A DNA stretch of 49,833 bases from Escherichia phage phi2013. The stretch lies in the sequence record MT427400.3. The stretch is one strand, 5' to 3'. The notes below the pieces were generated by a model that saw only the letters and a program-made list of their open reading frames with translations, was not told the origin of the DNA and made no database searches. Shown piece after piece: positions 1 to 49,833 of this stretch. How positions within the stretch are numbered: position 1 is the stretch's first letter; each line of letters begins with the position of its first letter. A program made the position numbers and the translations under genes.

Positions 1-35
1 GGATCTAGTGTGGACTGTAAGCACTGAGCGGTAAA

Positions 36-78
36 TAGCACTTTTTGTTAAAACCGGATCGGGATAACGCGGTATAGT
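36..78 (+). promoter_or_regulatory. early promoter cassette: TAGCAC-N5-TTGTTA palindrome-like box, 22-bp spacer with GC hairpin, -10 TATAGT
   Basis: tagcactttttgttaaaac at 36-54; gggataac/gttatccc dyad; TATAGT at 73-78; ATG at 110. Confidence 0.5.
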
Positions 79-109
79 TATCCCATCAACAACGAATGAG
101 AAAACGAAG

Positions 110-304
110 ATGGAAACGCAAATTGACGTAGTGGTTGTTCAGCGAGACTCAACTCATGAAAAGGGTCTGTTTAAGAAGGGAACGGAAATCACGATCGACC
201 TTGAGGATATGGTTGCTTATCACTCTGGACTTACCTGGAACGTGGTGCGCGTAGGCAGCGACTATAAACTCAAAGGCTTTAACACTTACTTTGCAGAGGC
301 TTAA
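110..304 (+). CDS. hypothetical early protein
   Basis: 64-aa ORF directly downstream of promoter cassette; stop abuts next gene. Confidence 0.5.
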   Translation: METQIDVVVVQRDSTHEKGLFKKGTEITIDLEDMVAYHSGLTWNVVRVGSDYKLKGFNTYFAEA

Positions 305-306
305 TC

Positions 307-777
307 ATGACAACCATTACCGTATTTCTGGCTAAAGATGAGATTGATGGCGAAATGTCATTCTTCGCATTTGAGCACAAAACCGGATCGCACTGGCATA
401 TGTATAGCCGCTACACGGTTATCGATATCAACTCATACCGCGCAGGCTCACTTACTGAAAAGCTGGGTTGCTTCATTGGAGCTATCAAGGTGAACAATGG
501 CTGCGAGTGGGCAGATGAGCACGAAGAGCGCCGCATGTGCAATATGATTAACCCGGTCTATCTTGAGTCGTTCGAGCTTGATGCTGATGTGAACATTAAG
601 GTGAGAAAGTCTGGTGAGTTATTGCCAGGGATGCGTGTGCTGACTGGTTACTCGGGCCGTAAGGTGTGGCGCACCGTATCGAAGATTCGCCAGCGTTCTG
701 CAACATGCTACAGCGTATTCTTTGAAGATGGCTGGAATATGATGTCCGGTAGTGAGGTGAAGTATCTCACCAAATAG
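307..777 (+). CDS. hypothetical early protein
   Basis: 156-aa ORF, tightly packed after preceding gene. Confidence 0.55.
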   Translation: MTTITVFLAKDEIDGEMSFFAFEHKTGSHWHMYSRYTVIDINSYRAGSLTEKLGCFIGAIKVNNGCEWADEHEERRMCNMINPVYLESFELDADVNIKVRKSGELLPGMRVLTGYSGRKVWRTVSKIRQRSATCYSVFFEDGWNMMSGSEVKYLTK

Positions 778-817
778 CACGAATTGTTAAAACCGGATCG
801 GGGTATCTTGCTATAGT
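775..817 (+). promoter_or_regulatory. early promoter cassette (TAGCAC-N5-TTGTTA, 22 bp, TGc-TATAGT extended -10)
   Basis: tagcacgaattgttaaaac 775-793; ggggta/tacccc dyad; TATAGT 812-817. Confidence 0.5.
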
Positions 818-855
818 TACCCCATCGAAACGAGATACCAATCAGAGGAATAACC

Positions 856-1086
856 ATGTCAATCGTCAAGAACCAGCAAGCCATCGATTAAACCAATAAC
901 AACCGCTTTGCTATTTTCATCACATCGATAGGTCGCCGATTTGCAGTCAAAGCCGTTCCGGGTGGATACAAAACCTACATGGAAGATAAAGGAAAGTGGG
1001 TGTGGTGCGAAAACCTTGCAAACTTCCTAGTCTGGAATGCAGACCTCCAGGGCTTTGATGATATCAGCACCTTAATTGAGGAATAA
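856..1086 (+). pseudogene. early ORF interrupted by in-frame TAA at 889-891 (nonsense mutation, readthrough or sequencing error)
   Basis: strong SD cagaggaa then ATG 856; 11 codons, TAA, then the same frame stays open 64 codons to 1086; no ATG to restart. Confidence 0.35.
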
Positions 1087-1092
1087 ATAATT

Positions 1093-1320
1093 ATGCCACG
1101 TTACAATAAACAGACTAAACTCACCCGCGTAAACGGGCACATGATTCCGGCTGAATCCACTCACTACGCAATGGGCGCAAAGCACGGAGTCTATTTCAAG
1201 TGGCGCGGTCAATGGAACTTCACGGCGGTTAGTAATTTCTACATGCGCGTCCCAGGTATTGACCCGCAGACGGTCGTAGAGGACTCAATCGGCAACAACA
1301 AGATCGAGGTGCTAAAATGA
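1093..1320 (+). CDS. hypothetical early protein
   Basis: 75-aa ORF. Confidence 0.5.
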   Translation: MPRYNKQTKLTRVNGHMIPAESTHYAMGAKHGVYFKWRGQWNFTAVSNFYMRVPGIDPQTVVEDSIGNNKIEVLK

Positions 1321-1423
1321 ACTTCAATACAATTGCTTTATGGTCTGCCGTCTGGTTCTTCTGTATGGGTCATGTCATGGTTGGAATCGTAGTTATGCTG
1401 CTACTGTGTGCGGGAGCGTTCGA

Positions 1424-1597
1424 ATGATGCGCATTCTGATTTGCATGATGGCGGCGGTCGCACTGGCTATCCTGGTAGTGTCCGGCTGCGGAGAGGCCAA
1501 AGAGCGATGCCATGAAACCGGAAACCAGGTTACTACTTTCGTGATGGTTGGCAACGTATTGCTACCAATCACATCAAATGAAATCACTTGCGAATAG
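1424..1597 (+). CDS. small putative lipoprotein
   Basis: SD gggag 7 nt before ATG 1424; N-terminus MMRILICMMAAVALAILVVSGC has a hydrophobic signal and lipobox-like VSGC. Confidence 0.5.
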   Translation: MMRILICMMAAVALAILVVSGCGEAKERCHETGNQVTTFVMVGNVLLPITSNEITCE

Positions 1598-1606
1598 GAT
1601 GTTAAA

Positions 1607-1798
1607 ATGGCTGATTTTATGCACCAAATGATTGCAGTATTCAAAGGTAGTGATGACCAGGAGGTGAAAGAGTGCTTTACTGTAGACAAGCCTTATAGCG
1701 CATCGCTAACCAGCTTCGGGAATATCTCATTGCTTGATGATAACGGCGACCCCTGGGTATTCGACGAAGACACTGATTGCTTCGAAATTAAAGAATAG
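1607..1798 (+). CDS. hypothetical acidic early protein
   Basis: 63-aa ORF, D/E-rich C-terminus. Confidence 0.45.
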   Translation: MADFMHQMIAVFKGSDDQEVKECFTVDKPYSASLTSFGNISLLDDNGDPWVFDEDTDCFEIKE

Positions 1799-1838
1799 CA
1801 CTTTTTGTTAAAACTCAATATCGGGGTTGCGCTATAGT
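1796..1838 (+). promoter_or_regulatory. early promoter cassette
   Basis: tagcactttttgttaaaac 1796-1814; 22-bp spacer with ggggtt/aacccc dyad; TATAGT 1833-1838. Confidence 0.5.
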
Positions 1839-1869
1839 AACCCCATCGACAACAAACGAGGACACTAAC

Positions 1870-2358
1870 ATGAAAATCAAATTGCTTTGCACTGGCGGTT
1901 ACAAGGGCTTTACTCGCGACCTGGAAGCGGATCCTATCGTGATTGATGCGGTGAAGTGTGATGATAGCCTCGGCGGCTACCGCGTGAAGGTTGACGACCT
2001 GGTGAAAGCTGGCGTGTACGATCTGGGCTATGGACTTTCGGTTAGCCCGGTAGTTGGTCCGGCAGACTTCAACGAGAAGGATGGAACGATGTTCTTCTTC
2101 GAATGGGAAGTCCAGGCAAATCCTAAGCCGCGCAAGGTTCGTCTTCTCAGTAATGGCGGCTACCCGATGCGTCCAGGTTATGAGAATCGCACATTCCCGG
2201 TTATCGTTGACTTTGAAGAAATCACCGCACACTTAGCTTATATCAACGGTGAACAGCTTCATGCTGTTGGATTCGTGGGATGTATGAATCAAGAGGCGCT
2301 ATGCTTCTTCCATTGTAAAGCCGAGCCGTTCGATATTGAGTGCGAGTTAGTATACTAA
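1870..2358 (+). CDS. hypothetical early protein
   Basis: 162-aa ORF with SD acgagg upstream. Confidence 0.55.
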   Translation: MKIKLLCTGGYKGFTRDLEADPIVIDAVKCDDSLGGYRVKVDDLVKAGVYDLGYGLSVSPVVGPADFNEKDGTMFFFEWEVQANPKPRKVRLLSNGGYPMRPGYENRTFPVIVDFEEITAHLAYINGEQLHAVGFVGCMNQEALCFFHCKAEPFDIECELVY

Positions 2359-2399
2359 GCACGAATTGTTAAAAGGGGATTTGGCCTGACTGGTATAAT
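2357..2399 (+). promoter_or_regulatory. early promoter cassette
   Basis: agcacgaattgttaaaa; 22-bp spacer; TGg-TATAAT at 2394-2399. Confidence 0.5.
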
Positions 2400-2429
2400 C
2401 CCCGCATAAACCACTAAGAGGAAAGCATC

Positions 2430-2936
2430 ATGTTAAAATTAGAAGACGTAAAATTCCCGATTAAATTTATCAGCCTAGGTTGCGGTGAAATTACATTCAC
2501 CAGTGAAGATAAAGGCAAGTGGGACAATGATAAAATGTCTCAGCTTAAGTTGGATTGGTTTATCAATCGGCACAATGAAGTAAATCCTGAAAACTCAGCC
2601 AAGAAGGATTACCATTACATTATTAGTGGTAGTCAGGATGCGTACGAAAAGTATGATGGTTGGAAAACTGTTCGATCAATCTTCCACCCCGCAAAGCCAG
2701 AAATTAAACCGATGTTACAATGCGCTCAGATCGAGAACATTCCATTGAGCGCGACGCTAAAAGGAGTGCAGCTTGATGATAAATCCTGGCTTGAAATAAC
2801 CGCCACGCCGAAAACTATTGAAGTGCACGACGATATCGTCACTCTTCTATTGCATTACGGCAGCTTTAAGCACAAAGCGGTATCAGGTGAAATCAGCATT
2901 AAGCGCGGAACACTTGTGCGCTATGAGGTGAAATAA
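2430..2936 (+). CDS. hypothetical early protein
   Basis: 168-aa ORF, SD aagagg. Confidence 0.55.
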   Translation: MLKLEDVKFPIKFISLGCGEITFTSEDKGKWDNDKMSQLKLDWFINRHNEVNPENSAKKDYHYIISGSQDAYEKYDGWKTVRSIFHPAKPEIKPMLQCAQIENIPLSATLKGVQLDDKSWLEITATPKTIEVHDDIVTLLLHYGSFKHKAVSGEISIKRGTLVRYEVK

Positions 2937-3082
2937 TGGCTGCATGGGTTTTGATTATCTTAATGAGTACCGGGCCGGATCACGTATACATGGAAAGTCA
3001 GCAATCATGAAACAAGGTACGGGAAGTAATTGCAGAGAATAAGCCGTTCGGATATGAAGTAAAAACGATGTGCGTTAAACGA

Positions 3083-3125
3083 TAGCACGAATTGCTAAAC
3101 CTTCCGCAAGGCCATTTGATATAGT
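3083..3125 (+). promoter_or_regulatory. early promoter cassette
   Basis: tagcacgaattgctaaac; TTGCTA 3092-3097; 22-bp spacer with aaggcca/tggcctt dyad; TGa-TATAGT 3120-3125. Confidence 0.5.
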
Positions 3126-3165
3126 GGCCTTATTGAAGCAAGGCAACCAATCAGAGGAATCAGCT

Positions 3166-25030: not shown

Positions 25031-28000
25031 ATGATTCAAAAAGTGATAAGTGGATCTAAAGGCGGCTCGCCTAAGCCTCATAATCCAGTTGAGATGGAAG
25101 ACAATCTAATCTCAATCAACAAAATCAAGATCCTGTTAGCTGTATCTGATGGTGAAATTGACGAAACATTCAGCCTGAAGCAGTTGATGTTTAACTCAGT
25201 CCCGGTGCAAAACGAGGATGGATCGTTCAACTTCGAAGGGGTAAAGGCTGAGTTCAGGCCGGGAACTCAGACGCAGGAATACATCAAGGGCATGGAGGAT
25301 AGTTCCAGCGAGGTAACTGTAAATCGTGAGGTTACTACCGATAACCCATACACGATCTCAGTGACCAATAAAACACTATCGGCAATACGCATCAAAATGT
25401 TCATGCCTCGCGGCGTACGAATTGAAAGTAACGGTGATAAAAATGGCGTAAGAGTTGAGTATGAGGTGCAACAAGCTGTTGATGGCGGTTCGTTTGAGAC
25501 TGTTCTTACTGACGTAATTGAAGGCAAAACAATGTCAGGTTACGACAGAAGTCGACGTGTAAACCTGCCTAGCTTTAACAACCAGGTAATATTCAGAGTT
25601 GTTCGAAAGACTCCAGACTCTAACGACTCTAACGTTGTTGATGCGATCCAGGTAAAGAGCTATGCCGAGGTGATTGATGCCAAATTCCGTTACCCTCTGA
25701 CAGGTCTTCTTTTCGTCGAGTTCGACTCGAAGATGTTCCCAAACCAGTTACCTACGATCTCAATTCGTAAGCGCTGGAAGATTGTAAACGTTCCATCAAA
25801 CTACGATCCGGAATCACGAACCTACAACGGCAATTGGGATGGGACTTTCAAGAAGGCGTGGACTAACAACCCGGCATGGGTTCTATACGATCTGATGATT
25901 AATCAGCGCTACGGTCTGGATCAGAAGGAGCTTGGAATCTCCGTCGATAAATGGGCGCTCTACGAGGCCGCGCAATATTGCGATCAGATGGTTCCTGATG
26001 GGAAGGGCGGGACGGAGCCTAGATACCTTTGCGACGTGATAATTCAGTCACAGACTGATGCGTACAAGGTGATTCGAGATATTTGCTCAATATTCCGTGG
26101 CATGAGCTTCTGGAATGGTGAAAGCATCTCGGTAATCATCGACAGACCGCGTGAGCCTGCGTACATCTTCACTAACGACAACGTTGTTAATGGTGACTTC
26201 TCCTATACGTTCGCAAGCGAAAAGAGTATGTACACGACGTGTAACGTGATGTTTGACGATGAACAAAACATGTATCAACAGGACGTTGAGCCAGTATTCG
26301 ATCGTGAGGCGACTCTGCGGTTCGGTAATAACGTAACCAGCATTACAGCGATAGGTTGCACGCGTCGAAGCGAGGCTAACCGACGAGGGCGATGGATTCT
26401 GAAGACCAACCTTCGCAGCACTACGGTAAACTTCGCGACCGGACTGGAAGGGATGATCCCGACAATCGGAGATGTTGTGGCAATAGCTGATAACTTCTGG
26501 TCAAGTAACTTGACGATGAACCTATCAGGGCGCTTGCTCGAAGTGTCTGGAAGTCAGATTTTCTTGCCGTTCCGTGTGGATGCACGAGCGGGTGACTTTA
26601 TTATCGTAAATAAGCCAGATGGCAAGCCCGTGAAGCGCACAATCTCAAGCGTTAGTGCGGATGGCAAGACTATAGAGATTAACATCGGCTTTGGCTTTCC
26701 TGTAAAGCCTAACACGGTATTCGCTATCGACAGAACCGACATTGCGTTACAGCAGTACGTCGTGACAAAAATCGATAAGGGCGATGATGACGAGGAATTT
26801 ACCTACAAAATCACGGCGGTGGAGTACGATCCTAACAAGTACGATGAGATTGATTACGGAGTTAACATCGACGACAGGCCGACGAGCATCGTTGAACCAG
26901 ATCAGATCCCTAGACCGGAAAACGTGCAAGTGTCCTCAGAGTCGAGAATCGTCCAGGGGATGAGCGTAGAAACGATGATTGTTAGCTGGGATAAAGTGCC
27001 GTACGCAGTTTTCTATGACGTACAGTGGAGAAAGGATAACGGCAACTGGCAAAACGTTCCGCAGACAGCAAACAAAGAGGTTTATGTTGAAGGGATTTAC
27101 GCTGGCAACTATCAGGTTCGCGTTCGCTCCGTAGCTGGTTCCGGTACGACTTCAGGATGGTCAAATGTCGTAGCTGCGACGCTGACGGGCAAACAAGGTG
27201 AGCCGGGTGGACCGATTAACCTTACAGCTACGGATGATGTTGTTTTTGGTATCCGTACAAAATGGGGGTTCTCTGATGGTTCTGGAGATACGGCCTATAC
27301 AGAGTTGCAACAGTCACCAGATGGAACAGTGGATAACGCAAGTTTGCTTTCTTTGATTCCGTACCCGCAGCATGAGTATTATCACTCACCGATGCCTGGA
27401 GGGAATATTGTTTGGTATCGTGTAAGGACGGTTGATAGGATCGGTAACGTGTCTCAGTGGACTGATTTTGTCAGAGGTATGGCATCAACAAACGTTGACG
27501 ATATCATTGGGGAGATTTCTGTCGATATCGAAAACTCGCCGGGTTACGAGTGGCTTGTTGATAACGCAACCGACAACGCGGCGCAGAACGCAGCTAACGC
27601 AGAGGCAGCAATAGAAAACGCGCTCGCCAATGACAAAGACGCGATCTACATGAAGAAGGAGAACGGAAAACGAAAAGCTGAGTACACGAAATCACTGAAA
27701 CTTATTGCTGATGAGACGCAGGCGCGAGTGACGGCGATCGAGCAATTGAAGGCAAGTTTTGGCGATCAGATTAGCGCTAGCAACAGCGAATTGCGTGAAG
27801 TTATCGCAACTGAGACTGGAGCGCTATCGCGTGAAATTGACCAACTCAGGGCAGAGATTGGTGATGATATCCAGGCAAGTTTGACCGATATCAGAGAGGC
27901 TATAGCAAACGAGACTGAGGCGAGAACGCAAGCTGACTTGTCGTTAAGCGCGAGGCTTGGGAATAATGAGGCAGCACTTTCTCAAAAACTTGATTCGTGG

Positions 28001-29739: not shown

Positions 29740-29819
29740 TTGTATGTCCTCGTCGTTAGTGTGATTGCATTGTATGTCGCATTTACTTTTATTGCAATAG
29801 CACTATTACAATTTTTTCG

Positions 29820-29835
29820 TGTAACAGGTGTCTAT
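29820..29835. repeat. iteron-like direct repeat copy 1 (TGTAACAGGTGTCTAT)
   Basis: second copy at 29961-29976, inverted related copy at 30168-30184. Confidence 0.6.
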
Positions 29836-29901
29836 TTTTGTAACCGGAGCGGGTGTTACAAAATCCACCCCATCCGACCGCAGAGGGATATGATAAAAAC
29901 T

Positions 29902-29918
29902 CTATATAATATATATAG
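29902..29918. repeat. 17-bp AT-rich repeat CTATATAATATATATAG (copy 1)
   Basis: exact second copy at 49001-49017. Confidence 0.65.
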
Positions 29919-29960
29919 ATAGATAATATTTAATTTTAGCTTTATATATAATTATTGTTG

Positions 29961-29976
29961 TGTAACAGTTGTCTAT
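29961..29976. repeat. iteron-like direct repeat copy 2 (TGTAACAGTTGTCTAT)
   Basis: 15/16 identical to 29820-29835. Confidence 0.6.
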
Positions 29977-30263
29977 TGTGTAACTGGTGATTTGATTGAT
30001 TCGTCAAATTTCTATCATATATGTTCAAAATTTAATCAATATGGATTCTACTTGTAGCTATCTCTGTATTTCTAAGAAAAAGCGGTTACAAGTATTACAC
30101 AGTAGACATCACATAAAAATAGACTTAAGCCATTGATTCCGTTAATGCTGGTTGTAACTTGAGCGATATAGACACGCTATTACACACCAATTACATGTAT
30201 CCGATTGACTAAACGCTGTTAATGGCTATAATGGATTCATCGTAAACGAAGGAGATAAACGCA

Positions 30264-36033: not shown

Positions 36034-38052
36034 GTGACAATGAACATTAAAAAACAGATTGCGTTACTTGGAGAGGACTACATAAAGCGAACTCAGGAGC
36101 GATTCACTGTAGGTGAGGTAGTTCCTTATCCGTATCAGGTTGTTGCTTACGCCGAGATCGCGAAGCGCTTGTCAAATTATGAGCACCCATTCTTCGTTAA
36201 AGCGTCTGTATCCGCAGGCAAGACAATTATTTTCGCTATGGTGGCAAAGCAGTGTCAGAAAATGGGCTTAAAAATGCTTGTCCTGGCTCGACAGGGTGAG
36301 ATTGTCGATCAGGATAGCGAAGAGATCGACAACTTCGGGGTAACGAACTCCATCTTCTCAGCATCGCTTGGAATCAAGTCCTGCTACTTCCCGATCGTGG
36401 TTGGCTCTGAGGGTACGGTTGCAAATGGCCTCGACAATGAGTTGGCTGATTTTGTCCCGCATGTAATTGGGATCGACGAATGTCACCAGGTGGATTGGGA
36501 AGACCTTGCGCAAGCCATCGAGGGTAAGGAAACAATGGAACAGATGAGGGGCGAGAAAGGGAAAATTATCATGGACGGAGATATTCCCCTGATTGGTAAT
36601 GATGGAAAACCTTTGCTTGGAACTAAGCGTAGTCAGTACACGATCGTAATCATGGAAATGATGCGGCGCTGTAAAAAGGTTCACGGGCACGATCTTAGAA
36701 TATTCGGCATGACGGGATCTGAATTTCGTGGCGTAGTTCCTATTCTGGTAGAGAATCCGAAAGCATTGGGATTCTGGCGTGAGCGAGTAACTGATATCGA
36801 CACAAACTATCTGATTGAGTTCGGCTCTGTCGTTCCGACTATATTCGGATCAACAGACGGAGTTCATTACGATCTGGATAAGTTCAAGGCGTCTAGCGAG
36901 GACGGAGTGCAGGACTTTACAGAGAAAGACATGAAGGCTATGGAAGATGAGATCCTTCATGATAAATCTCTGACTCAGCGAATCATGCAAATGGTCGCCA
37001 AAAAGGCAGAAGAACGCAATGCGGTCTTGATTACATGTGCTGGTGTGCGCCACTGCAAAGAGGCAGCGGCAGCACTTCCTCCGGGAAGCACCTATGCAAT
37101 TATTACTGGCGACACAGACAACAAATCGCGCAAGAAGATTCTGGACGATGTAAGGGCTGGGAAAATTAAATACACCTTTCAGGTTATGGCGCTCACTACT
37201 GGCGTTAACGTTCCAAATTGGGATTTCAGTGTCATACTCCGCAAGATAGGGTCGCTCACACTATTGATTCAACTTTTGGGTAGGGGTATGCGTCTGCTTA
37301 AATCCTGGCAGGTTGCTGAGGGAATGGTTAAGCAGGACCATCTGGTATGGGATTTCGCAGGTACGATGGATGAGTTGGGTCAGCTTTATTTCGATCCGAT
37401 ACTTGAGCAGGCGCAATTCCAAAATCGTTTTGAAAACGGCAAAGATCCGAAAACATGTCCGAAATGCGGTTGCGTAAATAGCTTCTATGCTCGACGATGC
37501 GTTAATGTCATTGATGGTGAACGTTGCGATCATTTCTGGACTTCTCAAATTTGTGAGGACCAGGTTGACGAGCGCACCGGAAAAATCCTTGTTAAAGGAT
37601 GCGGTGCAGAGAATGACGTTGTGGCCCGAGTCTGTCGCTGTTGCGATGTTTCTCTTGTTGATCCTAACCTTAAGTTATCCGGTAAGGCGTACACTAAGAA
37701 TGACTGGTACGAGGTCAAGAATTTTGAAGTTACGTTAACCAAAAACCAAAAGGGTGTGATATACAAATACACACTTATTAATGATGAGGGTGACGAGTTC
37801 AAGGCGTATGAAAAATTCTTCCCTGAGTCAGACTCTAAGATTTGCGGTACGCTATGGAAAACGAAAGGAGTATTACCTCACGTATCAGATCCTAAAATGC
37901 GCCGCTACTTTATCGGAATGAAGAACGCCATCAAGATCGTGCAGTACGCACATCATATTGCTCACCCGGTGCGCGTAACTCATCGTCGCAACCAGAAGAA
38001 AGAAGATATTATCTCACGCAAAGACTTCGGTATGGAGGATATCCCGGAATGA
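36034..38052 (+). CDS. SF2 DEAD/DEAH-box helicase with C-terminal zinc ribbons
   Basis: motif I SAGKT, motif II DECH; CPKCGC...C..H and CRCCD clusters; start GTG 36034 or ATG 36040. Confidence 0.7.
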   Translation: MTMNIKKQIALLGEDYIKRTQERFTVGEVVPYPYQVVAYAEIAKRLSNYEHPFFVKASVSAGKTIIFAMVAKQCQKMGLKMLVLARQGEIVDQDSEEIDNFGVTNSIFSASLGIKSCYFPIVVGSEGTVANGLDNELADFVPHVIGIDECHQVDWEDLAQAIEGKETMEQMRGEKGKIIMDGDIPLIGNDGKPLLGTKRSQYTIVIMEMMRRCKKVHGHDLRIFGMTGSEFRGVVPILVENPKALGFWRERVTDIDTNYLIEFGSVVPTIFGSTDGVHYDLDKFKASSEDGVQDFTEKDMKAMEDEILHDKSLTQRIMQMVAKKAEERNAVLITCAGVRHCKEAAAALPPGSTYAIITGDTDNKSRKKILDDVRAGKIKYTFQVMALTTGVNVPNWDFSVILRKIGSLTLLIQLLGRGMRLLKSWQVAEGMVKQDHLVWDFAGTMDELGQLYFDPILEQAQFQNRFENGKDPKTCPKCGCVNSFYARRCVNVIDGERCDHFWTSQICEDQVDERTGKILVKGCGAENDVVARVCRCCDVSLVDPNLKLSGKAYTKNDWYEVKNFEVTLTKNQKGVIYKYTLINDEGDEFKAYEKFFPESDSKICGTLWKTKGVLPHVSDPKMRRYFIGMKNAIKIVQYAHHIAHPVRVTHRRNQKKEDIISRKDFGMEDIPE

Positions 38053-40330: not shown

Positions 40331-41482
40331 ATGTCACAAGCTAAAATCACTACCGAGCAACTTGTCGAAGAGCGCATGAACGGCCTTACACTTCGCGAGA
40401 TCGCGGAAAAGTACGGTATGCATATTCGAACTGTTGAGGCTCGACACGCAAAATTGGCAAAAGAAGGCCACTTTCACGGCAATGAGCATGTTGCTAAAAA
40501 CGTTCCTGAAGGCTTCATGGTAAAAGGCACATCAACAATGATTCGCGGTGATGGGACTGAGGTCGTGCGATGGGTTAAGACCGATCAGGACCGTGAGAAG
40601 ATTGCAGCTATGATGGAAGCTGCACGCATTGCATTTTGTGAAGACTTGCCGCGAGCAAAGCCAACTGAGCTGCTCACATCGCAAGGTCTTACAACCTCTA
40701 TTGGAAAGCTGGCACTATACCCGGTGTTCGATCTTCACATTGGCGCGCTTGCTCATAAGCATGAATGTGGAGAGAACTACTCTACCGACGTAGCGGAAAA
40801 AGTGCTTAGCGACTTCTTTAATTACGCGATCGATATTGCTCCGAACGCAGAGAAGGCCGTTCTTTTAATCGGCGGTGACTTCCTTCACTCGGACGGTCTT
40901 GATGCTGTTACCCCGGCAAGTGGTCACGTTCTGGATCAGGATTCACGATATGCAAAATTGGTGCATGTAGCTATTAGATCTGTTCGTCGCGCTATCGACA
41001 AAATGCTACTGAAACACAAAGAAGTCGAGGTCCAGGTTATCGAAGGGAACCACGATCAGTCTGGGATGATTTGGCTGCGCGCTGCAATGTCGGCATATTA
41101 TGAAGACGAGCCGCGAGTATTCGTTGACGTTAGTCCTATGATTCTGCATAAGACTCGTTGGGGAAATACCTTGTTGGGATACACTCACGGGCACACTATG
41201 AAAAAGGCAGAGACTCGACTCGCAGCTATGGCAGCAGATTTCCGCGCAGATTTTGGTGAAAGCAAATACGTGTACACGCATAGCGGTCACTGGCATCACC
41301 AGACAATCACTGAGCACTCACTCGGTATTGATGAGGTTCACGGCCAGTTAGGCGCGAAAGACGCATACGCAGCACGAGGAGGGTGGCGCTCGTATCGCCA
41401 GGCGGCTGTAATTGTTTACGATAAGCAATTTGGGGAAATCGGTCGTTTCATCTATCGTCCAGAAATGACAGGATCGCACTAA
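40331..41482 (+). CDS. calcineurin-like metallophosphoesterase with N-terminal HTH
   Basis: GDFLH, GNHD, GH and GHWHH metallophosphatase motifs; N-terminal LTLREIAEKYGMHIRTV helix-turn-helix. Confidence 0.65.
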   Translation: MSQAKITTEQLVEERMNGLTLREIAEKYGMHIRTVEARHAKLAKEGHFHGNEHVAKNVPEGFMVKGTSTMIRGDGTEVVRWVKTDQDREKIAAMMEAARIAFCEDLPRAKPTELLTSQGLTTSIGKLALYPVFDLHIGALAHKHECGENYSTDVAEKVLSDFFNYAIDIAPNAEKAVLLIGGDFLHSDGLDAVTPASGHVLDQDSRYAKLVHVAIRSVRRAIDKMLLKHKEVEVQVIEGNHDQSGMIWLRAAMSAYYEDEPRVFVDVSPMILHKTRWGNTLLGYTHGHTMKKAETRLAAMAADFRADFGESKYVYTHSGHWHHQTITEHSLGIDEVHGQLGAKDAYAARGGWRSYRQAAVIVYDKQFGEIGRFIYRPEMTGSH

Positions 41483-47717: not shown

Positions 47718-48404
47718 TGCGATCGCTTTGAAAAATCCACGAGGAGATAAGGAACGTATCAGCTTCGTTTTGGCAGACTTGCCGCCCAGCTTGTTTTGCT
47801 GTGCAGAGTACCCGTCAGGCAGGTTTACAGGCTTCCTTTCTGGCATGACAAAGTCGTCCGAAGTCCAAAGACAAGTTTTCTTCGGGTAAGCATCGCGCGG
47901 CGCAATATACATCGGGAACCAGGGGTGTGCGTCATTCTCAGGAAGATAGCCGCCATACTCCCAGGGATTGAAAGTGTGGTCAGCCTTTCGCCAGGCTGAT
48001 GACAGGACGCTAACCGGATTCTCAATGATGTAAGTCACACCCAGGCTATCACCGATGTTCGCGGCAATCCGGGCGGTGGCAACAGCTTTCTCCTGGAATA
48101 GCGGATCACGTTTACGCTTGCTGGCAAAGTGTCGAGCACCACTAACGGCCAGGTCAGTGCACGGCGGGAAGGCCATAATGAAATCCGGCTTGCCATACAC
48201 ACCCGCGATCGCATCACGTTCGAACGTTTCATCAATGAACACGTTCACATACTCAATGTTGGGATGCTCTACCCGGGCATTGTACTTTGCATAATCTCCG
48301 TGATCGGCTCCGTCAAAGTTGAAGCACATCACTTTATGACCTTGCTTTGCCAGTTCATGACCAGCCAGGCCCGAGCCGTCGAATAGTGACCAGATTAATT
48401 TCAT
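47700..48404 (-). CDS. compact DNA (cytosine-5)-methyltransferase-like protein
   Basis: motif I-like LFDGSG, motif IV-like FPPC, motif VI-like IIENP; SD aggagg; only 234 aa. Confidence 0.5.
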   Translation of the reverse strand: MKLIWSLFDGSGLAGHELAKQGHKVMCFNFDGADHGDYAKYNARVEHPNIEYVNVFIDETFERDAIAGVYGKPDFIMAFPPCTDLAVSGARHFASKRKRDPLFQEKAVATARIAANIGDSLGVTYIIENPVSVLSSAWRKADHTFNPWEYGGYLPENDAHPWFPMYIAPRDAYPKKTCLWTSDDFVMPERKPVNLPDGYSAQQNKLGGKSAKTKLIRSLSPRGFFKAIANSTFC

Positions 48405-48613
48405 TTCGTTACCTCCTGGAAAACAGTTTGTCCGCTATTGGTCAGGAAGCGCCCGATCTTATTCATTGACCGGAACACGCCGATCTGATTCTGATGATTG
48501 TCAGTCGCGAAGTAACCGCCATCAATAAGGTAGATTTCATACACTGATTGATTCGTGAAGCTGTCAGTGCTGACGCTAACACATCGTACGGTACATTCAA
48601 ATTCTGGTTCCAT
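48401..48613 (-). CDS. hypothetical protein
   Basis: 70 aa; stop overlaps methyltransferase start. Confidence 0.45.
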   Translation of the reverse strand: MEPEFECTVRCVSVSTDSFTNQSVYEIYLIDGGYFATDNHQNQIGVFRSMNKIGRFLTNSGQTVFQEVTK

Positions 48614-48645
48614 TGCCTGAGTCCTCTGATTGGTTGATGTGATGA

Positions 48646-48690
48646 ATCATACCCTGCCGACCTGGCTGAGTCGTTAGCAAAAAATGCTAT
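48646..48690 (-). promoter_or_regulatory. promoter cassette (minus strand, approximate)
   Basis: minus-strand tagcattttttgctaa then about 22-23 bp then TATGAT. Confidence 0.4.
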
Positions 48691-48740
48691 TCCAATAATT
48701 GCTCATTATTCCATCAATAGCGGAATAGGTGGAATAATTC

Positions 48741-48830
48741 TGATTGCGATTGATTGCAAATGATGAAACGTGATTATTGCATGGTTTGCAACAGTTGGTT
48801 GATTTGTTGCTTAGATTGCAATGATTGTGA
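48741..48830. repeat. imperfect tandem array with 10-bp period (TGATTGCnAT-like units)
   Basis: tgattgcgat / tgattgcaaa / tgatgaaacg / tgattattgc at 48741-48780, further gattgcaatgattg copies to 48830. Confidence 0.55.
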
Positions 48831-48832
48831 GA

Positions 48833-48839
48833 GGGGGGG
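48833..48839. repeat. G7 homopolymer tract
   Basis: ggggggg in an otherwise AT-rich noncoding region. Confidence 0.7.
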
Positions 48840-49000
48840 ATCTAGTGTTGCCCGGTTCGCCTGGTAGTCATCTCCATTTTTAGCAAAAAGTGCTATCGAT
48901 TACACTTTACCTTGTCACAGATGTAATATTTGTCTAGAATCGCACTTGTGACAAAATTACACACTGTGACGCCTCTAAATATACATATAGATATATGTAT

Positions 49001-49017
49001 CTATATAATATATATAG
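49001..49017. repeat. 17-bp AT-rich repeat CTATATAATATATATAG (copy 2)
   Basis: exact match to 29902-29918. Confidence 0.65.
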
Positions 49018-49240
49018 TGTTTTCTTTATTTATATATATAGATAATTATATTGTAATAGTTGTGTATAGTTGTCTTACATTGTCTAGCGTACTGTTGGCA
49101 TATTTCTATCTGCATGTTTATATATACAGTACTTTTTTGAGAGCTATATATTTCTATAGTGACTCTAGACAGCTAGACAAATGTTACACAGCTTAATATC
49201 GGCTCGCAGTCATTGACAGCTCTGTATCGCACTGTCACAA

Positions 49241-49255
49241 TGTCAATTGTTGACA
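49241..49255. repeat. perfect palindrome TGTCAA-TTG-TTGACA
   Basis: 6-bp arms; nearby related half-sites tgtcaca, tgtgaca, ctagaca, tgtctag. Confidence 0.6.
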
Positions 49256-49299
49256 CATTATGACGCCATTTACACACGAATAGACAAAGAGGATATATT

Positions 49300-49815
49300 A
49301 TGAGCAATACCAATCAGGAATTAAAAATCACCGATATGATTCGACTAACCTGCGATGCAATGTATCGCGACAAAGGCATGAATGAGTTCTCTTTCGTGGC
49401 TGATGATATGGCCCTCGAGGCCGCGCGATTCTACTTCCGTGACCAGGAGGTAAGTGATAGCGATCTTGAATCTGCCGCTGCCGGATGGGTGGACCAGAAC
49501 CAGGGTGAGGTGGAGAAGCGATTCAAGTCTGCTTTCATTACGCCAATCATTACCCGGCACTTTTGCAAGTATGGCAAGGTGGCAAAGGTGAAGGTAGGCC
49601 GGAATGACGCTGCAATCACAATGATAACGGTTATCGTTACCGACGAAGAGATTCCCGTGAAGAAGCGCCGCAGTCGGAAGAAAGTTAGCCTGGCCGATTG
49701 CCTGGATTCGTTTGTGGTTGATGTGGGTAAACTGGCTGATAGCGAATTGATGACTCGTGACGTAAACGAGATCGTTCGCCAGATGAAGGCGCATATCGAA
49801 AAGTGTGGACTGTAA
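49300..49815 (+). CDS. hypothetical protein (first rightward gene after the noncoding hub)
   Basis: 171 aa; SD aaagagga; stop lies inside the terminal 26-bp repeat. Confidence 0.55.
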   Translation: MSNTNQELKITDMIRLTCDAMYRDKGMNEFSFVADDMALEAARFYFRDQEVSDSDLESAAAGWVDQNQGEVEKRFKSAFITPIITRHFCKYGKVAKVKVGRNDAAITMITVIVTDEEIPVKKRRSRKKVSLADCLDSFVVDVGKLADSELMTRDVNEIVRQMKAHIEKCGL

Positions 49816-49827
49816 GCACTGAGCGGT
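49802..49827. repeat. terminal direct repeat, identical to 7-32
   Basis: agtgtggactgtaagcactgagcggt at both window ends. Confidence 0.8.
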
Positions 49828-49833
49828 TTAATC

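Follow-up and report, generated by a model that had tools for sequence, protein, structure and literature searches.

What does the largest noncoding interval of a T1-like phage genome do? In the 49,833-nucleotide (nt) sequence of Escherichia phage phi2013 (record MT427400.3), the whole of which we call the window, the interval 48614-49299 separates a leftward from a rightward gene, and a preliminary description made from the letters alone saw in it a divergent control region, with a second replication origin or a packaging-related site as further candidates. What that description noticed is real and was for the most part accurately described. The gap is a known kind of region, a pac site with divergent promoters, whose role is already documented in outline for phage T1, and we consider it likely that phi2013 has in it a left-end region of the T1 type, which serves control and packaging and is composed of a pac module plus two promoters. 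For T1-like phages, this untranslated region was already recognised as the place where packaging begins. Comparison adds a delimited, conserved candidate pac module of about 200 bp, shared by four lineages of Drexlerviridae and made up of a direct repeat (DR1), a word array, a purine tract, and a cut zone; it also adds a set of repeats that varies with the adjacent gene and so makes a testable candidate early regulator or initiator.

The gap and the phage that carries it

phi2013 belongs to the genus Tunavirus (Drexlerviridae): its gap region is 88-100% identical to those of T1-like phages, and the whole window, after rotation and reverse complementation, is 99.97% identical to Enterobacteria phage IME167 (species Tunavirus JMPW1). 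Judged by the stretches left unannotated in the IME167 annotation, the gap is indeed the largest noncoding region, at 686 bp versus 524 bp for the next; it is flanked by a leftward gene of 70 amino acids (aa) and a rightward gene of 171 aa, and has a GC content of 35.7% versus 45.6% for the genome. The gap has a left half (48674-48896) and a right half (48900-49299), which differ. Conservation of the repeats in related phages, which had been proposed as a check, is found for the left half, where the module is kept across four Drexlerviridae lineages, but not for the right half, where the repeats are lineage-specific.

Genome ends of relatives and the pac-type terminases

The suggestion of a packaging-related site is supported by homology, as the start of T1, the pac site of TLS, and the PhageTerm ends of MSK and SU57 all lie at the equivalent place. 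Specifically, i) position 1 of the T1 RefSeq record NC_005833, which opens an annotated repeat_region 1..2800 (a 2800-bp terminal repeat), corresponds to window position 48776, and the records of JMPW1, JMPW2, FCWL1, and phi2457T begin at the same base as T1; ii) the pac site of TLS was located by restriction digest mapping (PMC11447400), and the break of the TLS record, 195 bp rightward of the last leftward gene, coincides with the beginning of a GATT array and lies within the same layout of DR1 plus GATT array; iii) PhageTerm called a forward terminus of MSK at 36,862 (p=1.6e-9), about 20 bp past a GTGAGTGAGTG tract which itself follows DR1 and a TTGCA/GATTG array; and iv) the SU57 record end, set from a PhageTerm call at an abrupt change in coverage, lies about 17 bp further on than the MSK terminus, the two ends corresponding in a joint alignment to window positions ~48860-48875. 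Other records break at 48830 (Shfl1), ~48843 (Sanco), 48845 (SH2), ~48859 (IME347), and 48865 (IME167 and Henu5_2). The SU57 paper places pac of T1 and T1-like phages in this untranslated region, and papers citing Ramsay and Ritchie (1983) credit them with showing that T1 packages by a pac-initiated headful mechanism. In the literature on T1-like phages that we covered, which did not include the T1 genome paper, we found no definition of the pac sequence signals.

The packaging proteins agree with this placement. Identity to the T1 proteins is 100% for the small terminase of phi2013 and 99.8% for the large one; the small terminase scores 39.4 bits against the Pfam family GP3_package (PF16677; curated cut-off 29.4) and matches the structure of P22 gp3 (3P9A) with E=1e-15; by homology, the phage thus has terminases of the headful (pac) type. 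From the ends of the relatives, together with a T1-identical small terminase of the P22 gp3 family, we infer that the pac cut zone lies at about 48776-48875 and that packaging runs rightward:

48776..48875, plus strand: putative pac cleavage zone, rightward packaging, spanning 48776 (T1, JMPW1, JMPW2) to ~48875 (SU57), with MSK at ~48860

A conserved module in the left half

The cut zone overlaps a left half whose parts can be aligned far beyond the genus:

48646..48690, minus strand: predicted leftward promoter module, with DR1 ATAGCATTTTTTGCTAA (48690->48674), a spacer of 22-23 nt, and TATGAT (48651->48646); 77 nt 5' of the ATG
48686..48737, no strand assigned: four TATTCC/GGAATA half-sites (48688, 48707, 48722, 48731) in the order -> -> <- <-, kept in Tunavirus, Badaguanvirus, and Webervirus
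48741..48830, plus strand: cluster of the words (T)GATTG and TTGCA on one strand, the genome-wide maximum, present in five of five lineages compared
48827..48839, plus strand: purine-rich tract GTGAGAGGGGGGG, including a run of seven G (G7), with counterparts GTGAGAGGGAGG in relatives, GAGTAGTGAGTGAGTAG in TLS, and GTGGTGAGTGAGTG in MSK
48880..48896 (48896->48880), minus strand: second direct repeat, DR2 ATAGCACTTTTTGCTAA, an orphan copy that is invariant within Tunavirus

Alignments of Tunavirus, Badaguanvirus, Webervirus, Tlsvirus, and Braunvirinae have the parts in a common order, namely DR1, half-sites, word cluster, and a purine-rich tract of the GTGAG type; the exceptions concern the half-sites, which TLS replaces with two AGACCGATTGGTCT palindromes and which Braunvirinae lack altogether. 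About 80 nt of the module (48674-48758), at an identity of about 80%, can be recognised in roughly 200 records of Klebsiella phages of the genus Webervirus, whereas the remainder of the gap cannot. A scan of IMG/VR with a 15-mer gave matches that were nearly all due to chance.

The most distinctive part is the word cluster. GATTG alone occurs 5 times in 94 nt (0.18 expected), and GATTG and TTGCA together reach 9 words per 100 nt where the next best window of the genome has 4; the words are irregularly spaced and all on the same strand, and we regard the cluster as the candidate recognition array for the small terminase. The same interval, 48741-48830, had been described as an imperfect tandem array with a 10-bp period, of the kind seen in iterons and bent DNA. 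Tandem Repeats Finder reports only 2.4 copies there (48741-48764), and self-matching is not significant at a lag of 10 (p=0.07) and reaches p=0.02 at a lag of 9 before correction for multiple lags, so that the iteron or bent-DNA reading would rest on a periodicity which is itself not significant. The G7 run is present at 48833-48839 as described, but it is not conserved, being G6 in T1 and GGGAGG in most relatives. The evidence thus favors the G-rich tract and the word cluster as the conserved features, rather than a 10-bp iteron array. We conclude that the left half is a conserved DNA element, neither a gene nor an RNA.

The two copies of the palindrome cassette reported at the edges of this half, TTAGCAAAAA(A/G)TGCTAT at 48674-48690 and 48880-48896, are there, but they belong to a genome-wide promoter-associated repeat and are not specific to the region. 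The motif ATAGCACnnnTTGnTAA occurs at about 26 sites in the genome (for example 35-90, 774-830, 3082-3140, and 47252-47190); on the strand of the repeat, copies with at most one mismatch have ATAGCAC at a constant offset and then the same downstream layout. When the copies are aligned, a TATAGT-like hexamer, often with TG before it, comes about 22 nt after the repeat, and about 20 other copies share the layout of the leftward promoter module. We therefore read the DR1 module, from its sequence, as the predicted promoter of the operon on the methylase/helicase side. The TATAGT-like hexamer sits within an inverted repeat whose sequence varies from copy to copy while its complementarity is kept (arm pairs include GGGATAAC/GTTATCCC, GGGGTT/AACCCC, and AAGGCCA/TGGCCTT), and the center of the direct repeat falls near -42 relative to the inferred start of transcription, where activator sites typically lie.

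A 21-nt intergenic direct repeat of Drexlerviridae, aaATAGCACnnnTTGnTAAAA, has been described for TLS, with its function listed as open (PMC11447400). Both gap copies fit that consensus, DR1 with one mismatch and DR2 with none, and both are oriented with local transcription; DR1 lies 77 nt 5' of the ATG, where the TLS description gives about 76 nt. DR2 differs in having no -10-like hexamer at the expected distance and no gene downstream, and in adjoining the putative cleavage zone. The gene that DR1 would serve borders the gap:

48401..48613, minus strand: first leftward gene, 70 aa, phrog_16851; left border of the gap

How packaging might start, and known pac sites

We suggest that a ring of small terminase subunits of the P22 gp3 family would bind repeated short words within ~48674-48896, the prime candidate being the GATTG/TTGCA cluster, to which the TATTCC half-sites may contribute; that the large terminase would then cut the concatemer inside a stretch of about 100 bp (roughly 48776-48875); and that headful packaging would proceed rightward, the first chromosome therefore starting here and carrying a terminal repeat of about 2.8 kb. 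In the same interval, the leftward DR-type promoter would serve the methylase/helicase-side operon, while the sigma-70 promoter at the right end would serve a block of small rightward genes. The AT-rich blocks between the two promoters are bracketed by inverted, lineage-specific sites (TGTAAYATTTGTCTAG here; CTAGACA..TTACACA on the other strand), which may be bound by a regulator of early transcription that the phage itself encodes, perhaps in the adjacent first rightward gene.

The closest known counterpart is the pac site and left terminal-repeat boundary of T1, which has an orthologous gap with the same last leftward gene, DR1, four TATTCC half-sites, GATTG array, G tract, DR2, AT-rich block, and first rightward gene. 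The differences are in the right-half repeat (TGTCTAG here, TGTTAATC in T1), in the first-gene allele (52% identical), and in the G7 run, which is G6 in T1; moreover, the left end of T1 is annotated in its record, whereas that of phi2013 is placed from its relatives.

Comparison with better-defined pac sites reveals both likeness and difference. P22 shares the small terminase family (PF16677; PDB 3P9A), headful packaging, and initiation cuts spread over about 100 bp, but its pac consists of one 22-bp site within gene 3, whereas the candidate here is an intergenic word array of about 150-200 bp located 9.4 kb upstream of terS. A 9-mer at 48668-48676 (GAGTCGTTA here, AAGTCGTTA in T1) resembles the 3' end of the P22 pac and adjoins DR1; since neither phiD2-2 and IME347 nor other phages of Tunavirus or Webervirus conserve it, it is probably a chance match (p about 0.07). 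As in P1 and SPP1, several copies of a short word adjoin the cleavage zone, with an AT-rich or bendable segment nearby. In P1, however, the words are GATC-containing hexamers that lie to either side of the cut and are subject to control by Dam methylation, and the P1 site includes a site for IHF; the words here are GATTG and TTGCA on one side of the cut only, and the gap contains a single GATC (3.4 expected) and no IHF consensus.

The right half and a second AT-rich gap

The right half carries the other promoter, two AT-rich blocks, and a set of repeats that is nearly private to it:

48912..48954, no strand assigned: inverted repeat TTGTCACA/TGTGACAA enclosing the distal site TGTAATATTTGTCTAG (48922-48937); promoter-like hexamers overlap it on both strands
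48975..49050, no strand assigned: AT-rich block 1, up to 90% A+T (49001-49040), conserved in Tunavirus
49072..49087, plus strand: middle repeat copies TGTCTTA and TGTCTAG
49163..49190, minus strand: promoter-proximal repeats, CTAGACA twice and then TTACACA, ending 22 nt upstream of the -35 hexamer
49213..49241, plus strand: predicted rightward sigma-70 promoter, TTGACA-17-TGnCACAAT, score 10/12, about 60 nt upstream of the first rightward gene
49241..49255, no strand assigned: TGTCAA-TTG-TTGACA, an imperfect palindrome, not conserved and probably incidental
49300..49815, plus strand: first rightward gene, 171 aa, phrog_11083

The idea of a divergent control region is borne out by the rightward sigma-70 promoter, facing the leftward DR-type module 77 nt upstream of the leftward gene. 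The promoter at 49213-49241 is annotated as such in SA30RD and has positional counterparts in T1, Webervirus, and TLS, and is thus conserved in position in four lineages; blocks analogous to AT-rich block 1 are found in Webervirus, TLS, MSK, and SU57. The AT-rich block and its 17-mer are also as described: CTATATAATATATATAG occurs at 49001-49017, within the segment of 90% A+T at 49001-49040, and again at 29902-29918.

The repeats themselves are concentrated here as had been noticed, four of the five genome copies of TGTCTAG/CTAGACA lying in the gap (0.07 expected) and three of the four copies of TGTCACA. The distal site TGTAATATTTGTCTAG (48922) has an inverted copy, CTAGACAAATGTTACA (49173), complementary at 15 of 16 nt; the two are 235 nt apart and bracket both AT-rich blocks. 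The supposed perfect palindrome TGTCAATTGTTGACA fared less well: it has 6-bp arms about a 3-nt center, and in most relatives one of the arms is TGGCAA. Where the window has its right-half repeats in the alignment, T1 and ISF001 have TGTTAATC, with five of its six genome copies there, and DELF2 has CGGTTGCA; at equivalent positions Webervirus has (A)ATCTTACC and TLS has words of the GTGAACA type. In the Webervirus Klebsiella phage phi1_146047, seven of the eight genome copies of ATCTTACC lie in two large AT-rich gaps (25929-26222 and 41220-41327), a distribution that echoes the two-region pattern of the window.

The second region of the window is 29740-30263, its second largest gap, an AT-rich interval between cor and recE, upstream of recE. 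It has a near-consensus promoter, TTGACT(30205)-16-TATAAT(30227), two copies of GTGTAACAGKTGTCTAT, and TAGACA-N5-TTACACA just upstream of the -35 hexamer, a layout that matches the right half of 48614-49299. Together the two gaps hold 9 of the 16 genome copies of TAGACA and 7 of the 9 copies of TGTGTAA, and each of them has a TAGACA..TTACACA site, the end of which lies about 20 nt before a -35 hexamer.

The layout of the right half fits binding sites of a sequence-specific regulator. The product of the first rightward gene is among the most diverged proteins between the window and T1 (52% identity, with the DELF2 allele at 24-28% to both), whereas most other proteins are 90-100% identical, and the three repeat types of Tunavirus coincide with three first-gene alleles (24-52% identity); this linkage of repeat type with allele points to the first-gene product as the putative binder. 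The protein also carries a KKRRSRKK patch. A sequence-family search with it returned only noise at the level of domains of unknown function (DUF), and no homology was found between it and the first genes of Webervirus or TLS. An ST23-like regulator was considered as the binder of the lineage-specific repeats and rejected, being 98% identical between T1 and the window although the repeats differ. We would go further only tentatively: with a rather low probability, the right half and 29740-30263 may be sites of a previously unrecognised early DNA-binding family, phrog_11083, whose variable N-terminal part co-evolves with the repeats and which would act either as initiator at the T1-family origin or as a looping autoregulator of early transcription.

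Alternative explanations

Could the left half be a gene or an RNA instead? A 37-codon open reading frame (ORF) at 48754-48867 (MMKRDYCMVCNSWLICCLDCNDCE...) would give a small Cys-rich protein in which the GATTGC and TTGC words are Asp-Cys and Cys codons; an ATG stands at the same aligned column in all lineages, followed by codons rich in TGC and TGT, and one automatic annotation has a 47-aa ORF here in a Webervirus. The frame, however, breaks at a TGA after 12 codons in T1 and phiD2-2, at a TAA after 18 codons in IME347, and by a 1-nt deletion in mtp23 and Sanco, and the window, through its G7 run, is shifted by +1 against its relatives; the DNA beyond each of these breaks is still conserved, and there is no ribosome-binding site upstream of the ATG. 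We consider a coding function highly improbable, and the small ORFs called here in relatives by automatic annotation are almost certainly spurious. Scarcely more probable is a structured RNA, either the leader of the leftward transcript or a small RNA. About 200 nt of conserved noncoding sequence with DR2 upstream in the leftward direction would suit it, and in an RNAalifold analysis of 11 sequences from four genera, on both strands, the energy of the consensus fold was far below that of column-shuffled alignments. Yet the two strands fold equally well by way of the same short palindromes (-10.6 and -10.4 kcal/mol), as is expected of inverted repeats in DNA; the covariation term is only -1.0 kcal/mol, almost all predicted pairs being invariant; DR2 is not followed by a -10 hexamer; and a scan of 48300-49500 against Rfam gave no match at E<=1. 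A pac module in DNA accounts better for the left half.

A replication origin is the alternative for the right half, and perhaps also for 29740-30263: the repeats would be iterons for a phage initiator and the AT-rich block the unwinding element, an arrangement that could coexist with a pac site and promoters. The blocks reach 78-90% A+T, and the repeats that bracket them are found almost nowhere else; in three Tunavirus clades the motif type varies with the allele of the neighboring gene, and Webervirus and TLS have different motifs again, much as iterons vary with their initiators; and TAGACA and TGTGTAA are shared by the two AT-rich gaps in the proportions given above. We keep this explanation as a rival because the literature we found names no origin for T1 or its family. 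The second origin proposed in the preliminary description is nonetheless not supported: neither the gap nor the gap upstream of recE contains an exact DnaA box (TTWTNCACA) in the window, T1, Webervirus, or TLS, and near matches are enriched in the window only; the IHF consensus WATCAANNNNTTR is absent from the gap; the repeats number only 4-5 copies in mixed orientation and with irregular spacing; in both gaps the copy nearest the promoter stands about 20 nt 5' of a -35 hexamer, where an activator or operator site would be; the GC skew follows gene orientation only; and the primase and helicase genes are elsewhere in the genome. We thus judge an origin in the right half to be unlikely, although decidedly less so than a gene or an RNA in the left half.

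The reading that we prefer, a pac module with two divergent promoters, has to be held against several observations that speak the other way: i) all end positions for phi2013 are transferred from relatives, and some of the record break points may have been taken over from T1 by convention instead of being measured; ii) the ends scatter over about 100 bp without coinciding, and the record of mtp23, the termini of which were determined by PhageTerm, breaks about 150 bp further to the right, at the start of the AT-rich block; iii) two other T1-like phages gave no PhageTerm terminus; iv) five ATATA repeats, corresponding to the AT-rich block, have been proposed as the pac signal of T1, according to a secondary citation; v) between the lineages that have the word cluster in common, small terminase identity is only about 50%; vi) promoter-like sites in the gap, 6 versus 3.9 in shuffled sequences, are not in excess; and vii) the AlphaFold model of the first-gene product, although confident (pLDDT 84), has no significant structural match in the PDB and no detectable DNA-binding fold, for which reason this protein is put forward only as a possible binder of the right-half repeats.

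Uses of the module and ends of the record

T1-like phages are common contaminants of laboratories and fermentations, generalized transducers, and candidates for phage therapy. The conserved fragment of about 200 bp is a convenient unit for tests of terminase binding, transduction, and engineering; for the T1 pac site, transduction was measured in the 1980s. Annotators should call no small ORFs in the gap, and may open genome records in it.

The record itself has an artefact at its ends:

1..32 and 49802-49833, plus strand: record-end artefact; bases 7-32 repeat 49802-49827, and bases 1-6 and 49828-49833 match no relative

The 38 extra bases of this end duplication are absent from JMPW1, IME167, and Henu5_2, and the duplication therefore looks like an unresolved circular overlap. 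The reported match between GGATCTAGTG at 48838-48847 and window positions 1-10 exists, but positions 1-10 are part of the 38-nt end duplication and the match thus involves a likely artefact of the record; with about 0.1 chance matches expected per genome, we rejected it as the mark of a physical end and treat it as a coincidence. The 10-mer site at 48838-48847 does, for its part, fall within the cluster of record break points.

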